DNA from: Escherichia coli
GTDB taxonomy: Bacteria; Pseudomonadota; Gammaproteobacteria; Enterobacterales; Enterobacteriaceae
Direction: 5' to 3' (one strand)
DNA length: 64,000 bases
Assembly (NCBI RefSeq): GCF_022846255.1
Contig: NZ_AP025682.1
Shown: positions 1 to 9,000 of the stretch, piece by piece
Layout: each line of letters opens with the position of its first letter
Numbering within the stretch: position 1 is the first letter of the stretch
Position numbers: made by a program

Positions 1-3000
1 TACGATGCGGATGCCGCCCCATCTGGATAACTTCTTGTACGCTGAATGGAAACGCCATGTGGCTATTTTGACGCATCACGGCCCGGTGTTTCGCCAGTTC
101 AGTAATCGACCATTCATTTAATGGCTTATTAAACAACCGACATTCGCCGCTATCAGGTTGAAGATAGCCGGTTAGCTGGCGAAGCAGCGTAGATTTTCCC
201 GCACCATTAGGCCCGAGGATGGCAACAATTTCCCCACCGGGAAAAGTCAGCGAGACATTATCAGTCAGACGCCGCCCCTGAAGGCTATAAACCAGATTCT
301 GGGCGCTGATCATGTGATCCTCCGGTTGCGCAGAATCAACCACATAAAATAAGGGCCACCAAGCAGGCTGGTTAATAATCCCACGGGCATTTCTGCTGGC
401 TGTACCAGCGTGCGGGCAAGCGTGTCTGCCATCAGCAATAAACAGGCTCCGGCGAGGGCGGAACAAGGGATTAGCCAGCGGTGATTTGCCCCGGTAGTCA
501 TGCGAATCAGATGCGGGATCACCAGGCCAATAAAGCCGATAATGCCGCTTACCGATACGGCAGCACCAACGAGCAGTGAGCTCACTAACAGTAATTGCTG
601 GCGTTTACGCTTCACGTTCACGCCGAGGTAGTGGGCTTCTTCATCACCGAGCTGCAGTAAATTCAGCGTTCCGGCGAGACAAGTTGTTGCGATAATGGCC
701 GGTAGGATGAATGAACTGGCAACCAATAACGTCGGCCATTGCGCCTGTCCAAGATTGCCCATCATCCACAATGTGAGTTGTCGTAGCTGCTGCTCATCGC
801 CGATATAGCTCAGGATGCCGATCGCTGCGCCGCACAGGGCATTGATGGCGATACCGGCGAGTAATAATTGCATCATGCTGCCATCGCGATGGCGCTGCGT
901 GATGAGAAAAATGATGGTGCAGACCACTAAACTTCCGGCAATGGCAAACACCATTTGCTCATAGAGCACCAGCACCACTGGGAAGGAGAAGGGCAGCACA
1001 ATAGCAACGCCAACCATTAATGCAGAACCGCTACTGACGCCGAGTAATCCAGGGTCAGCCATTGGGTTGCGAAAAAGCCCCTGCATAATTACCCCGGCGG
1101 TTGCCAACGCTGCACCTACCAGCACCGCCAGCAAAACCCGTGGTAGACGAATATTGAGCCAGATATCGCGGTATTCCTCATCAAAAAGGGCATCAAAACT
1201 GATCTTTAACGCTCCCTGACTGGCACCAAACAGCACCAGAGCTAGCAATAATAGTGATAGCCCCATAAAGACCCTGGCGGAAGAGAGTGAATCCTTGAGC
1301 ACGCAAAACTCCGTTACGACATTACGGCGCGGACATGCCGCGCCGGGGGATCACGCCGGTTTCAGGTCCGGTTCAATCAGACTGTAGACCTGCTGGTTAA
1401 GTGCTGGCGCATTTGCCAGTTCATGGATATGTGCGGCGACATCAGCACGGTTAATAAAACCATGACACTCCTGATTTTGTATCCGTTGTGCTTTGCCCGT
1501 TGCCGCACCATCAAGCAGACCGCCAGGGCGGAGAATGGCATAATCAAGCTGGCTGGTTTGCAACCAGCTTTCCGCCAGCGTTTTTTCCCGTACCGCCTGA
1601 CCAAACGCAGCCTTTGCCCGCTCTGATAAAAACGGCCAGCTATCGCCGCATCCCAAAGAGGTCACCAGAATCATGCGACTGATGCCTGCTTTCTCGGCCT
1701 CGTCAATCACTGTTCTGTGCGCCAGATAATCCTGAGCTCCGCCCATTGTTGAGATGATAAGCGCATCCGGGCCAGCTGCGCGGCAAGCAGCCGCGACTAC
1801 GCTGGCATCACAGGCGTCGCCTGTAAAAACCTGTACGCCTTGTTGCGCCAGTTTCGTGGCGGCATCGGCATGACGAATGACAGCAACGACCGGACGTTGT
1901 TCCGCCAGCGCCAGTTCAAGCGTTCTGGCACCCACACCTTTTCCGCCTGCGCCAAAGAGTAGCCACGGTGTCATCAGGCGTGTTCCTTTAACGATGCTGC
2001 CAGAGCATGGAAGGCGCTGACTTGTTCGCTCAGGAGCTGACGATGATCATCCCTACCGAGGAAGATTTTCAGCATTGCGCTGCCTTCCTTATTGAAAAAG
2101 AGAATAGAGGCGGTGTCCATGCCCATAAATTTACGTTCGATCAAGGCAATATGCGTGCAGTTTTCTGCTTTGATATGCCCGGACATGCCGTGCTTTCCGC
2201 GTAGGTTGAAATAGCCGTGGCGATGGAAACCCGAAGGCAGTTCGCCGCTAAATTCGAGTATTACATCGGTAGTATGTACTAACGTGGTGACGTTGCCCCA
2301 TTCGCAGACGGTATCCCAGACAGTATCGAATTTATCACCTGACACAACAGTCGGAGAGGGCAGATTTTTCACTACCTCCAGCAGCGTGGTGTTGTATTGT
2401 TCGGCGATCGCCTCCAGCGTACCGTCTGGCTCCGTTTTCAAAAATTCCTGTAACGAGACATGGCTCATAAATCACTCCTGTTATGGTTTTTCAAGCGCAA
2501 TTGCTGGCGCATTAAGTACCTGAATCAGTTCATTAAGAGACTGCAAAATGTTGCTTGCCCAGAAACGACCTTCATTGGTCAACCGCAGACACGTTGACGC
2601 ATCGCGGCTTAAGCCTTTTTGGTGCCACTGGGCCAGTAACGGCGCGAGTTTTTCGGCATGTGGCGTAAGTTCGTCCAGCGGTACACGCGCCGTTTCAATG
2701 CCCGACTGCAAGGTATGACGCCATTGCGCATTACGTTCGGCGTTACGCATGATCATCATCAGCGGTTTTTTGCCTGCCGCGACGGATTCATGCCAGGTCT
2801 GAAGATTGCGTTCGTTCATCCAGGAGTACCCATTAATCGAACCGCCGGCTCCGGAACCAAAGGCCAGACAATCGGCACCTTGTTTAATCAGCAGGTTATA
2901 GAGATTGCGTTCGCGTGTGGTACGGCCCCAGTGGCTGTTACTGATGCAGCGCCAACCGGCATCGTCCATAAAATCACACCCTTGCAGGTAAAGATCGCGA

Positions 3001-6000: not shown

Positions 6001-9000
6001 GAACTGAAAATCTGGATGGTATTGTGGCCTGGTCCAGTCGCGATCGGGGTGATTTACGCCAGAGCAATGGTGAAACCGCGCCGAATGACGAATCCATTAA
6101 TAACATGCTGGCGAAAGGGACCTGGCAAATTGATTCAGCCCAGTCTCTGAGCGGTTTAGTGCGTTACTACAACAACGACGCGCGTGAACCAAAAAATCCG
6201 CAGACCGTTGAAGCTTCTGATAGCAGCAACCCGATGGTCGATCGTTCAACAATTCAACGCGATGCGCAGCTTTCTTATAAACTCGCCCCGCAGGGTAACG
6301 ACTGGTTAAATGCAGATGCAAAAATTTACTGGTCGGAAGTCCGTATTAATGCGCAAAACACGGGGAGTTCCGGCGAGTATCGTGAACAGATAACAAAAGG
6401 AGCAAGGCTGGAGAACCGTTCCACTCTATTTGCCGACAGTTTCGCTTCTCACTTACTGACATATGGCGGTGAGTATTATCGTCAGGAACAACATCCGGGT
6501 GGCGCGACGACGGGCTTCCCGCAAGCAAAAATCGATTTTAGCTCTGGCTGGCTACAAGATGAGATCACCTTACGCGATCTGCCGATTACCCTGCTTGGCG
6601 GAACCCGCTATGACAGTTATCGCGGTAGCAGCGACGGCTACAAAGATGTTGATGCCGACAAATGGTCATCTCGTGCGGGGATGACTATCAACCCGACCAA
6701 CTGGCTGATGTTATTTGGCTCATATGCTCAGGCATTCCGCGCCCCGACGATGGGCGAAATGTATAACGATTCTAAACACTTCTCGATTGGTCGCTTCTAT
6801 ACCAACTATTGGGTGCCAAACCCGAACTTACGTCCGGAAACTAACGAAACTCAGGAGTACGGTTTTGGGCTGCGTTTTGATGACCTGATGTTGTCCAATG
6901 ATGCTCTGGAATTTAAAGCCAGCTACTTTGATACCAAAGCGAAAGATTATATCTCCACGACCGTCGATTTCGCGGCGGCGACAACTATGTCGTATAACGT
7001 CCCGAACGCCAAAATCTGGGGCTGGGATGTGATGACGAAATATACCACTGATCTGTTTAGCCTTGATGTGGCCTATAACCGTACCCGCGGCAAAGACACC
7101 GATACCGGGGAATATATCTCCAGCATTAACCCGGATACCGTTACCAGTACCCTGAATATTCCGATCGCTCACAGTGGCTTCTCTGTTGGTTGGGTCGGTA
7201 CGTTTGCCGATCGCTCAACACATATCAGCAGCAGCTACAGCAAACAACCTGGCTATGGTGTGAATGATTTCTACGTCAGTTATCAAGGGCAGCAGGCGCT
7301 CAAAGGCATGACCACTACTCTGGTATTGGGCAACGCCTTCGATAAAGAGTACTGGTCGCCGCAAGGCATCCCACAGGATGGTCGTAACGGAAAAATTTTC
7401 GTGAGTTATCAATGGTAATCATCTGCCCCGATATTTCGGGGCATTTATCTGGAAGGAAGAGAGACAATGAACCACTACACACGCTGGCTTGAGTTAAAAG
7501 AACAAAATCCCGGAAAGTACGCGCGTGACATCGCAGGTTTAATGAATATCAGCGAAGCAGAACTGGCATTTGCACGCGTCACGCACGACGCGTGGCGGAT
7601 GCGCGGCGATATTCGTGAAATTCTGGCGGCGCTGGAAAGCGTTGGTGAAACCAAATGTATTTGTCGTAATGAATATGCAGTCCATGAGCAAGTTGGCTCG
7701 TTCACAAACCAGCATTTGAACGGACATGCCGGATTGATCCTCAATCCGCGCGCGCTGGATTTACGTCTGTTTCTCAATCAATGGGCCAGTGTTTTCCACA
7801 TCAAAGAAAACACGGCTCGTGGCGAACGCCAGAGTATTCAGTTCTTTGATCATCAGGGCGATGCATTACTAAAAGTTTATGCCACCGACAATACCGATAT
7901 GGCGGCATGGAGTGAGCTTCTGGCACGGTTTATCACCGATGAGAATACGCCGCTTGAGTTAAAAGCCGTTGATGCGCCAGTTGTTCAAACGCGAGCCGAT
8001 GCCAGTGTGGTCGAGCAAGAGTGGCGGGCGATGACCGACGTTCATCAGTTTTTTACGTTGCTCAAGCGCCACAACCTGACGCGCCAACAGGCGTTCAATC
8101 TGGTGGCAGACGATTTGGCCTGCAAAGTATCCAACAGTGCGTTGGCGCAAATTCTTGAATCTGCACAGCAGGATGGCAATGAAATCATGGTGTTTGTTGG
8201 CAACCGTGGCTGCGTACAGATTTTCACCGGTGTGGTAGAAAAAGTGGTGCCAATGAAAGGTTGGCTGAATATTTTCAACCCGACGTTTACCCTTCATCTA
8301 TTAGAAGAGAGCATTGCTGAAGCCTGGGTTACCCGTAAACCGACCAGCGATGGTCACGTAACCAGTCTGGAATTGTTTGCCCATGATGGTACGCAGATAG
8401 CGCAACTTTATGGTCAACGTACAGAAGGTGAACAGGAGCAAGCGCAATGGCGTAAGCAAATTGCTTCGTTGATACCGGAAGGCGTTACTGCATAACGTAT
8501 AATTAACGGGAGGTCTGGCTGTTGCTGGGCCTCTTTATATTGTTCAATCGTTCACACCAGATAATTAATATGCTGATGGCGTACCAGCTCATTGATCCGC
8601 TTAAGATTGAGGATCATCATGATATTGTGTTTATGGCAGTAGAACGTTTTTAGCGATATTTTCAGTTTCTCCAGAATATCTTCCGTTGTCATTTGATTCG
8701 CAATGCAGCTCAGAACCTGATGCTGCTTGCGCGAGAGGGACACATCCGCTTCAGGCACAGAGCAGTAACTGCCATTGATGAGTGCGACAAAGTCGATGAT
8801 GGCGATAGTTCGCGGAACAAAGGTCACCGGTACTTTCCCCAGGCAGCGTTTAATATTAAAGGGGGAGAAAATAATTACATGGACAGGTTTTAATCGTTCA
8901 ATTTGAGTGAGAAAATTAGAATGAAATACATTATTCATTAATGTATCAATAATGACGAAGGCATTCTGATGCAACATTACGTCGATTTCTTCTTCGTTCT

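Follow-up and report, generated by a model that had tools for sequence, protein, structure and literature searches.

The window analysed here, a 64-kb stretch of Escherichia coli DNA, comes from a phylogroup-B2-like strain and carries its chromosomal chu (shu) locus for heme uptake and utilisation, situated in the yhiD–dctR interval of the acid fitness island. Based on sequence comparison, we put the probability of this assignment at about 0.95. The gene cluster is intact, ordinary and already known, and its new-looking point is that the chuA leader occupies the position of hemP. We suggest that the long chuA/shuA 5′ UTR is probably an exapted pseudogene, the remnant of hemP (hmuP), which in the closest relatives encodes a small heme-binding regulator at the head of hemPRSTUV operons.

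The gene layout was given concordantly by three sources, namely the RefSeq annotation of a 99.8%-identical genome, NCBIfam/Pfam scans and matches to solved structures. The DNA identity to annotated B2/APEC/UPEC genomes is 99.8% over 12 kb, and all of the genes bear chu names there. Five complete genes and a partial one lie on the minus strand. The window starts inside chuV (<1–313, heme ABC transporter ATPase; RefSeq CDS; NCBIfam NF010068, E = 8e-45, profile positions 5–107 of 261) and thus holds only its 5′ third, 104 N-terminal codons. It is followed by chuU (310–1302, heme ABC transporter permease; shuU/chuU in RefSeq; Pfam FecCD, 320 bits, full length), chuY (1351–1974, anaerobilin reductase; RefSeq; Pfam NAD_binding_10; PDB 5GUY/5FFQ, ChuY/ShuY-like, E = 1e-134, full length), chuX (1974–2468, cytosolic heme carrier of the HutX family; NCBIfam TIGR04108 HutX, 209.8 bits, cutoff 110), chuW (2481–3818, radical SAM methyltransferase of anaerobic heme degradation; NCBIfam TIGR04107 rSAM_HutW, 570.8 bits, cutoff 400) and chuT (3838–4752, periplasmic heme-binding protein; RefSeq start; Pfam Peripla_BP_2; PDB 2R7A ShuT, E = 2e-161). 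Residue 49 of the chuT ORF corresponds to the first residue of crystallised mature ShuT (PDB 2R7A). A longer chuT ORF, reaching 4830 from a TTG codon, would begin upstream of the mapped transcription start.

On the plus strand, chuA (5436–7418, TonB-dependent outer-membrane heme/hemoglobin receptor; NCBIfam TIGR01785, 588 bits, cutoff 317) gave more than 1400 bits against PDB 9DHE/9DIR (ChuA) and 3FHH (ShuA). It precedes chuS (7467–8495, heme-degrading protein/heme oxygenase; two Pfam HemS domains; PDB 4CDP/1U9T, E = 1e-229) and a terminator-like hairpin with a 12-pair stem (8508–8535, plus strand). Beyond chuS lie dctR (8552–9082) and slp (9235–9801), both on the minus strand. The divergent arrangement of chuVUYXWT and chuA-chuS next to dctR-slp, as drawn in the preliminary description, is therefore correct, with chuV truncated by the window. 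Its protein assignments also agree with the similarities found: the ShuA, ShuT, ChuS and ChuY structures are near-identical matches, and the ChuA, ChuW and ChuX models score above cutoff. Annotation, family-model, structure and site comparisons yielded nothing that contradicts a chu locus.

The mechanism of the system is established in S. dysenteriae, EHEC and UPEC, and is carried over to the present strain through near-identity. ChuA would import heme across the outer membrane with the help of TonB, and ChuT would hand it to the ChuUV ABC importer. In the cytoplasm, heme is predicted to be bound by ChuX and ChuS, with aerobic degradation assigned to ChuS; anaerobically, ChuW would open the ring and ChuY would then reduce the product, and iron would be freed.

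Fur-box-like sites had been described ahead of both operons. A search with the consensus GATAATGATAATCATTATC (at most 3 mismatches) found only two in the 64-kb window, at 4776–4794 on the chuT side and 5127–5145 on the chuA side (0.02 expected by chance; two reached in 0 of 100 shuffles). Both lie inside the 683-bp chuT–chuA spacer and agree with published positions (PMC3660397, PMC5458455). With plentiful iron, Fe-Fur on these predicted boxes would switch off the divergent chuA-chuS and chuTWXYUV promoters, and iron limitation would allow transcription of both operons. A promoter scan placed the chuA promoter on the plus strand (TTGATC, 17-nt spacer, AATAAT; 5107–5135), overlapped by the Fur box up to 5145, and this promoter/Fur block is kept upstream of hemP in Citrobacter, Leclercia and Pseudocitrobacter. 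The putative chuT promoter on the minus strand (4801–4830) consists of TTGAAT (4830–4825), an 18-nt spacer and TATAAC (4806–4801), as deduced from the sequence and the published start site; the consensus scan did not list it, its rule demanding that the -10 hexamer end in T. Since promoter-like sites found by the sigma-70 scan were no more numerous in the window than in shuffles, the promoter calls are based on published start sites and conservation.

In S. dysenteriae, the shuT transcript begins 42 nt before the ATG according to 5′-RACE, and the Fur site follows closely after +1 (PMC5458455). Taken together with the sequence, this gives chuT a 42-nt 5′ UTR (4753–4794, minus strand), which includes the Fur box (+1 to +19) together with the thermometer hairpin reported for shuT, in which AUUCU pairs with AGAGU over the RBS. 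The U15/U16 positions of the published thermometer mutations (PMC5458455) map onto the UU of AUUCUC in this UTR. The hairpin is not stabler than shuffled sequence (z = +1.1), which is compatible with a thermolabile structure and is not evidence for one. By analogy with S. dysenteriae, this short leader would give chuT a thermometer of its own beside the Fur site.

On the right, the DNA that K-12 lacks ends at 8551, exactly where the preliminary description ended the locus; identity with K-12 resumes at 8552, in the dctR stop codon. The left edge lies beside yhiD, about 500 bp before the window start, judging by the junction in the 99.8%-identical genome. K-12 has 36 bp where the locus has 9,055 bp, and its yhiD–dctR spacer is 41 bp. 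The claims of absence from K-12 and of location in the acid fitness island region hold. The wording of an inserted pathogen-associated island is sound as to these two points but overstates both the insertion and the link with pathogens, given the lack of mobility features and the presence of the locus in 41% of complete E. coli genomes.

A recent acquisition of chu, as a pathogenicity island that entered the acid fitness island in pathogenic lineages, is unlikely in our view. Such an origin would agree with the 36 unrelated bp in K-12 and with the limited spread of chu, which only 2236 of 5426 complete E. coli genomes carry. Outside Escherichia, the nearest orthologues occupy other chromosomal sites and have another operon layout, so the locus must have been assembled or moved at some point. 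However, the locus ends were found to carry neither an integrase or tRNA gene nor an IS element or direct repeat. The GC content (0.49–0.55) matches the chromosome and exceeds that of the neighbouring acid fitness island. Marks expected of a mobile or pathogenicity island, such as an integrase or tRNA anchor, repeats on both flanks or a deviant composition, were thus not found. Moreover, the site is common to E. albertii, where chuV adjoins hdeB, and Escherichia sp. MOD1-EC7003, where chuS adjoins dctR-slp; with a chuA dS of 0.49 between the window and E. albertii, this indicates that its presence at this site predates the diversification of E. coli. In K-12, the filler bears no resemblance to the chu locus either way. 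Because mobility features are lacking, the GC content is normal and the site is common to two non-coli Escherichia lineages, loss in the K-12 lineage appears at least as likely as gain.

The chuA leader had been estimated at about 290 nt. In EHEC, dRNA-seq mapped the start 291 nt upstream of the ATG (PMC9002310); carried over by alignment, it falls at about 5144, and since this allele has one base more, the leader is 292 nt long here (5144–5435, plus strand), close to that estimate. The allele is of the B2/UPEC type, with 78–88% identity to the O157 type over window positions 5000–5400, a difference known before (83.4% identity, PMC9002310). A small hairpin with a U-tract, found as a terminator-like match at +104 to +131 (5247–5274, plus strand), is paired in all six Escherichia lineages, with one pair altered on both sides, and coincides with the EHEC Term-seq 3′ end at +129 (PMC9002310). 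Published work counts eight regulatory inputs to the chuA 5′ UTR and describes repression by RyhB/Esr41, activation by CyaR, Rho-dependent termination and an inhibitory segment (the last three in PMC9002310); removal of the segment from +177 to +217 derepresses chuA 9-fold in EHEC. The CyaR, RyhB/Esr41 and Rho inputs would act within the leader here too.

The last 32 nt of the leader, extending into the start codon (5407–5438, plus strand), form a FourU RNA thermometer over the chuA Shine-Dalgarno sequence (Rfam RF02597, 60.1 bits, gathering score 58), in which AUUUUCC pairs with GGAGAAU (-6.1 kcal/mol, z = -2.8). This short hairpin, with its U-run on the Shine-Dalgarno sequence, resembles the shuA_thermo family in every respect compared, and its sequence is identical to that of the O157 allele. 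The FourU class was reportedly first described for Salmonella agsA. Experiments on shuA and on the chuA gene of pathogenic E. coli have demonstrated temperature-dependent translation (PMC3660397), and the hairpin would mask the chuA ribosome-binding site below about 37 °C. The RF02597 match reaches the gathering score in E. albertii and E. marmotae but stays below it in Pseudocitrobacter (41 bits), and the covariance-model scan did not detect it in the Citrobacter or Leclercia loci. The reported thermometer is thus present, as expected from the preliminary description, but it does not account for the long leader, since it covers only the last 32 nt. The CyaR, Rho and inhibitory-segment inputs and the proposed origin from hemP bear on that question.

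In the closest non-Escherichia chuA orthologues, hemP (PF10636) lies exactly at the position of the chuA leader. The promoter, the Fur box, the first codons, the stop region and the downstream block are collinear with these outgroup loci, and the body between them is barely recognisable. By position, the probable relic spans 5174–5361 (plus strand); it includes an open frame of 53 codons (MDNKIISF..., 5174–5335) and a retained stop region AAATAA (5356–5361). This small ORF lies between a Fur-box promoter and a heme receptor gene, in the same interval and with the same flanks as hemP and with a similar length, which supports descent from hemP, not membership in the HemP family. The Pfam hemP model had no match at E ≤ 10 in four Escherichia versions of the ORF (B2, O157, E. 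marmotae and strain SCPM), whereas Citrobacter HemP, the positive control, scored 62–64 bits. All seven ORF versions compared lack the KLILxK motif of the C-terminus and the His/Tyr heme ligands, features that do not vary among 15 HemP sequences, and the literature treats the shu locus as lacking a hemP homologue (PMC6158557). We propose that an ancestral hemPRSTUV-type operon headed by hemP gave rise to the chuA leader by descent; Escherichia would have lost the HemP protein and kept the Fur-controlled promoter, the first codons, the stop region, an HPRE-like GCCAGC block and the FourU hairpin.

The GCCAGC block, found by a pattern search, is a direct repeat of the form GCCAGCC-N19-CAGCCAGC (5373–5406, plus strand) and sits about where the CyaR site was reported. 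The pattern has two matches in the window (0.00 expected), and in 10 of the 11 chuA/hemR upstream loci examined it occurs once, at the corresponding position; the remaining locus, from E. albertii, carries a variant of the block. It is conserved across five genera and invariant within E. coli. The block resembles an HmuP-responsive element (HPRE) and may be considered a candidate for one; the C. violaceum chuR example is CCCGCAAGCCAGCCGACAGCCAGCCAGCG at -26 (PMC9131926). According to a secondary source (PMC9241770, citing Amarelle 2019), the HPRE is absent from gammaproteobacteria.

Replacement of the hemP body by unrelated sequence, with only the promoter and the receptor-proximal block inherited, seems a doubtful alternative. 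The relic body has no significant similarity to hemP by nhmmer, hmmsearch or Pfam: the hemP DNA profile against the leader gave E = 1.6, the converse search with an Escherichia leader-body profile recovered no hemP in the outgroup loci, and a protein profile search of the leader against HemP gave E > 1. On the other hand, the interval has kept its length (ATG to TAA, about 186 nt here and 180 in C. youngae) and both of its edges, with ATG.CA..ATGGATAAC as the opening codons and AAATAA around the stop. Profile–profile alignment of the ORF with HemP by hhalign was collinear end to end (P = 0.009), and ORF segments took ranks 1, 2, 5, 6 and 9 among 2453 six-frame segments compared with the HemP profile. 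Anchor-free alignments were better on average than dinucleotide shuffles (mean z 1.2, best 3.7). Because synonymous dS is already about 0.5 within the genus, a hemP pseudogene dating from the Citrobacter split is expected to be almost unalignable. Within E. coli, the leader body falls into two deeply diverged haplotypes, of the B2 and the O157 type (K = 0.32 vs a chuA dS of 0.087), and between species its K is only about 0.5–0.6 of dS.

It is very improbable that a functional small protein or a regulatory leader peptide, such as a degenerate HemP-like regulator, is made from the 53-codon frame: a frame of 34–53 codons with a common start position is open in five of six Escherichia lineages (ATG in four, GTG in one), some NCBI records list it as a hypothetical protein, and its end adjoins the segment of the EHEC leader whose loss derepresses chuA, but its variable sites fall about equally on the three codon positions (14/14/15), its pN/pS of 0.68 falls between two out-of-frame controls (1.21 and 0.45) and thus betrays no coding constraint, frameshifts alter its C-terminus in O157, E. 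albertii and E69, MOD1-EC7003 has lost the start codon and gained an ERIC-like element, no Shine-Dalgarno sequence precedes it, no Pfam, NCBIfam or wider homologue was found, and the HemP KLILxK motif is missing.

As such, the finding of the chu locus matters little, this being a textbook iron-acquisition locus that was correctly flagged; chuA is a standard marker of phylogroups B2, D, E and F. If the leader does descend from hemP, this would give an origin for a 5′ UTR that is among the longest and most heavily regulated in E. coli and would explain why its middle varies between EHEC and UPEC beside two invariant ends. It also raises the question of whether the GCCAGC block is still regulatory without HemP, which bears on how a receptor is rewired after the loss of its regulator.

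Compared with known systems, the locus has the same eight genes, divergent layout, site, Fur boxes and FourU element as shu of S. dysenteriae and chu of O157:H7 and CFT073, and it differs from them only in allelic changes (coding regions about 97–98% identical to O157). With the HPRE of E. meliloti and C. violaceum the locus would share a GCCAGC-like direct repeat in a receptor 5′ UTR, about 30 nt before the ATG; unlike the HemP/HmuP/ChuP regulator systems, the chu locus of the window does not encode a HemP protein. The Yersinia-type hemPRSTUV (hmuP′RSTUV) operons of Citrobacter, Leclercia and Pseudocitrobacter encode a receptor 85–88% identical to ChuA and homologues of ChuS, ChuT and ChuU (HemS, HemT and HemU), and the chuA leader matches them collinearly in the Fur-box promoter and in the block just before the receptor gene. 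However, they are single operons at other sites, with an intact hemP at the head and without chuW, chuX and chuY, whereas in Escherichia an untranslated leader would be all that is left of hemP, and the transporter genes lie in a divergent operon together with chuWXY.

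The first 12 kb of the window were 99.8% identical to many phylogroup-B2-type E. coli chromosomes (APEC O1, IHE3034, NU14, BCE049), and gene coordinates were transferred directly from the RefSeq annotation of one annotated genome, L001. The minus strand carried chuV (<1-313; a fragment matching the heme ABC ATPase model, limited to its first 104 codons because the window starts within the gene), chuU (310-1302; FecCD match), chuY (1351-1974; NAD_binding_10, near-identical to the solved ChuY, 5GUY), chuX (1974-2468; TIGR04108, 210 bits with a cutoff of 110), chuW (2481-3818; TIGR04107, 571 bits with a cutoff of 400) and chuT (3838-4752; Peripla_BP_2, near-identical to the solved ShuT, 2R7A). 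The plus strand carried chuA (5436-7418; TIGR01785, 588 bits with a cutoff of 317, near-identical to ChuA 9DHE and ShuA 3FHH) and chuS (7467-8495; two HemS domains, near-identical to ChuS 4CDP and 1U9T). They were followed by dctR (8552-9082) and slp (9235-9801), both annotated in L001. Every gene of the locus lying wholly within the window was full length. The RefSeq transfer, the family and domain models and the solved structures all concurred with the chu/shu assignment of the preliminary description, whose observation is confirmed in every particular; the system is thoroughly characterised and already known. It should be noted that the N-terminus of the ChuT precursor (4609-4752) contains two signal-peptide-like stretches in tandem, that crystallised mature ShuT (2R7A) begins at residue 49 of this precursor, and that O157 has Ala at a position where an internal Met is found in the B2 allele (KTMVKRKK).

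The locus was carried by 2236 of the 5426 complete E. coli genomes. In K-12, yhiD and dctR are 41 bp apart. In chu-positive strains, identity to K-12 ends 5 nt past the yhiD stop codon and returns exactly at the dctR stop codon; between these junctions lie 9,055 bp, in place of 36 unrelated bp in K-12, which bears out the absence of the locus from that strain. The right edge of the K-12-absent DNA is window position 8551, where the preliminary description had also ended the locus. No flanking direct repeats, integrase, tRNA or IS element were found at the locus ends, and the GC content of the locus is ordinary (0.49-0.55) against the low values of the surrounding acid fitness island (0.33-0.46). 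The same genes occupy the same site in E. albertii, where chuV adjoins hdeB, and in Escherichia sp. MOD1-EC7003, where chuS adjoins dctR-slp (chuA dS from the window 0.49 and 0.16, respectively). Based on the lack of mobility features and end repeats, the GC content and the shared site, we take the locus to be an old component of the genus that the K-12 lineage has probably lost, and consider an insertion in pathogens less probable. Its proposed position within the acid fitness island stands. The 36-bp K-12 filler was also considered as a deletion scar, but its similarity to the locus (12) did not exceed that of shuffled sequences (11.7 ± 1.2), so the direction of the event cannot be read from the junctions.

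Several differences were observed downstream. In the ars region (9900-12100), the operon is reduced to arsC (10985-11410), which adjoins a yhiS remnant, and lacks the arsR and arsB genes known from K-12; the AgrB antisense RNA (11585-11669, 91.5 bits) and dinQ (about 11944-12027) follow. The B2 genome BCE049, although otherwise collinear, has nothing corresponding to 23331-43087 (about 19.7 kb), a segment that encodes a tibA-like autotransporter adhesin, an autotransporter O-heptosyltransferase, yhiJ/yhiL-type DUF4049 genes and an IS3 transposase. Only one of the 5426 complete E. coli genomes covered at least 80% of it, at 95.3% identity. At about 48247/48248, the window does not have the class II aldolase / HPr / FGGY kinase / galactitol-type PTS / GntR cluster of BCE049 (18143-24042 in the BCE049 locus). 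An Rfam match to naRNA4 (CssrE, a REP-derived nucleoid-associated RNA) was found at 58598-58676 (65.2 bits; gathering threshold 59.5).

A search of the whole 64-kb window with the 19-nt Fur consensus, allowing up to three mismatches, returned only 4776-4794 and 5127-5145 (chance expectation 0.02). Both putative Fur boxes are located in the 683-bp chuT-chuA spacer, one ahead of each operon, as had been proposed. Transcription of S. dysenteriae shuT was shown by 5'-RACE to start 42 nt ahead of the ATG, and the Fur site lies directly downstream of +1 (PMC5458455). Carried to the window, this start is G4794 and the Fur box covers +1 to +19; U15 and U16, the bases mutated in that study, lie in AUUCUC, the arm paired to the ribosome-binding site. 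A candidate chuT promoter, TTGAAT-N18-TATAAC, can be read at 4830-4801. Given this promoter and the published start site, the longer TTG-initiated chuT ORF of a mechanical ORF listing is not the gene. The chuT thermometer folded no more stably than shuffled sequences, so it is taken from the literature only.

For chuA, dRNA-seq of EHEC Sakai gave a 5' UTR of 291 nt (PMC9002310). Aligned to the window, this start falls at about 5144, at the 3' end of the Fur box and just downstream of a predicted promoter, TTGATC-N17-AATAAT (5107-5135). Since the B2 allele is one base longer, the leader is 292 nt (5144-5435), in agreement with the earlier estimate of about 290 nt. The Rfam shuA/chuA thermoregulator matched at 5407-5438 (60.1 bits; gathering score 58), with a predicted hairpin in which AUUUUCC pairs with GGAGAAU. 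The reported thermometer is thus present, but it spans only 32 of the 292 nt of the long leader that it had been thought to fit. In an exact 18-mer scan of species-representative genomes, the hairpin was confined to Escherichia, the 24 other matches being chance hits in unrelated taxa. Published work on this leader (PMC9002310) places a CyaR site roughly 15 nt ahead of the Shine-Dalgarno sequence and locates RyhB and Esr41 at the ribosome-binding site; it also describes termination by Rho at +271, an inhibitory stretch between +177 and +217, and 3' ends mapped by Term-seq at +129, +271 and +297.

What, then, is the rest of the leader? A conserved secondary structure of its whole length was rejected by RNAalifold (covariation term +0.45; 2 of 61 pairs changed on both sides). 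Small hairpins are kept across lineages, but not beyond the shuffle control; one of them (5247-5274), which has a U-tract, maps to the 3' end published at +129. An 11-bp long-range helix was predicted between 5230-5240 (+87 to +97) and 5436-5446, that is, the chuA AUG and the next 8 nt. Across six lineages (alignment columns 87-97 and 293-303) it is 97% paired and six of eight changes on the variable side keep pairing; all changes are one-sided, with no double changes, and the shuffle control was uninformative.

The leader also contains a 53-codon open frame (5174-5335, plus strand), which is not mentioned in the published work on the chuA leader consulted for comparison. It shows no sign of being conserved as a protein, and that reading was rejected. 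Variable columns among eight lineages are spread evenly over codon positions (14/14/15), and pN/pS (0.68) lies between those of wrong-frame controls (1.21 and 0.45). O157, E. albertii and strain E69 have frameshifted C-termini, and in MOD1-EC7003 the start codon has become ATT. No family match or wider homologue was found, the only database relatives being Escherichia 'hypothetical proteins'. RefSeq locus tags between chuT and chuA skip one number in both genomes inspected (RS02910 to RS02920 in L001, RS01595 to RS01605 in L002); together with these records, the skipped numbers suggest that a gene was once called here and then withdrawn.

The leader body is dimorphic in E. coli: 1227 of the 2236 genomes have the window allele (at least 99% identity) and 1007 have another allele, with about 89% identity across the entire spacer. 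The differences cluster in 5000-5400, and recombinant forms exist. An EHEC/UPEC leader difference has already been published (83.4% identity, PMC9002310); the comparison with dS is our own addition. Between B2 and O157, the leader body has K=0.32 against a chuA dS of 0.087, while between species leader K is only 0.5-0.6 of dS.

Comparison with more distant loci suggests an origin for this body. The closest non-Escherichia ChuA relatives (85-88% identical; Citrobacter koseri, C. youngae, Leclercia and one metagenome contig) all have a hemP gene (PF10636) of 59-78 codons between promoter and receptor gene, as part of a Yersinia-type hemP-R-S-T-U operon. In Pseudocitrobacter faecalis, the hemP copy (about 2260-2440 of its locus) is frameshifted and not called as a gene; in the same locus, roughly 850 bp upstream of the promoter (1541-2400) consist of tandem REP/BIME-like repeats. 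When the 345 nt upstream of the receptor ATG were aligned between Escherichia and hemP-bearing loci, shared anchors ran in the same order: an A-tract with GCTTGAT (-35 region), the Fur box, ATG.CA..ATGGATAAC (covering the initial HemP codons, MSRMDN, as well as the beginning of the E. coli open frame), AAATAA (at window 5356-5361, where hemP stops), the block TTTCGCCAGCCACCC.GGT...CCCAGGCAGCCAGC and the ribosome-binding hairpin. In Escherichia, this ATG and the TAA are about 186 nt apart, compared with 180 nt in C. youngae.

Between the anchors, the leader body is almost unrecognisable as hemP, and direct proof from nhmmer in both directions, hmmsearch and Pfam failed to reach significance. 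A hemP DNA profile gave E=1.6 against the leader, the reverse search with a leader-body profile found nothing at hemP, and the open frame did not match the Pfam hemP model. These results would suit the alternative that unrelated DNA of the same length replaced hemP between retained ends. On the other side, a single planned hhalign profile-profile comparison gave P=0.009 with a collinear 47-column alignment at 30% identity (MDN/MDN, KEGVLL/EGRVII, QKY/QHY, LRD/LRQ), and with the HemP protein profile leader ORFs ranked 1st, 2nd, 5th, 6th and 9th of 2453 six-frame segments, albeit at E-values above 1. Anchor-free alignments of leader and hemP lay weakly above dinucleotide shuffles (mean z 1.2). 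Based on synteny, the retained flanks and this weak residual similarity, we suggest, with a probability of about 0.65, that the chuA leader is hemP decayed in place; replacement appears the less probable course. Decay of hemP, proposed for a body without a significant sequence match, is the sole part of the analysis that may be new.

A block GCCAGCC-N19-CAGCCAGC is located at 5373-5406 (repeats 5373-5379 and 5399-5406). It shows no variation among E. coli sequences (K=0 across the final 83 nt), and a single copy is present at the corresponding position in 10 of the 11 chuA/hemR upstream loci compared, with a variant in E. albertii. The leader body of MOD1-EC7003 carries an inserted ERIC/IRU-like element of about 112 nt; downstream of it, the block and the thermometer are intact. 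The pattern GCCAGCC-N(10-40)-CAGCCAGC matches at just one further place in the window, 34207-34239 in the autotransporter region, probably by chance. The block resembles the HmuP-responsive elements quoted for Chromobacterium violaceum in PMC9131926. Since a secondary source (PMC9241770) reports such elements to be absent from gammaproteobacteria, the likeness is taken as a resemblance only.

None of the 120 matches listed, from 192 HemP family matches, was named as Escherichia, and the S. dysenteriae locus has been said outright to have no hemP homologue (PMC6158557). The Yersinia-type hemP-R-S-T-U operons of Citrobacter and Leclercia have hemP at the very place where Escherichia has the chuA leader.
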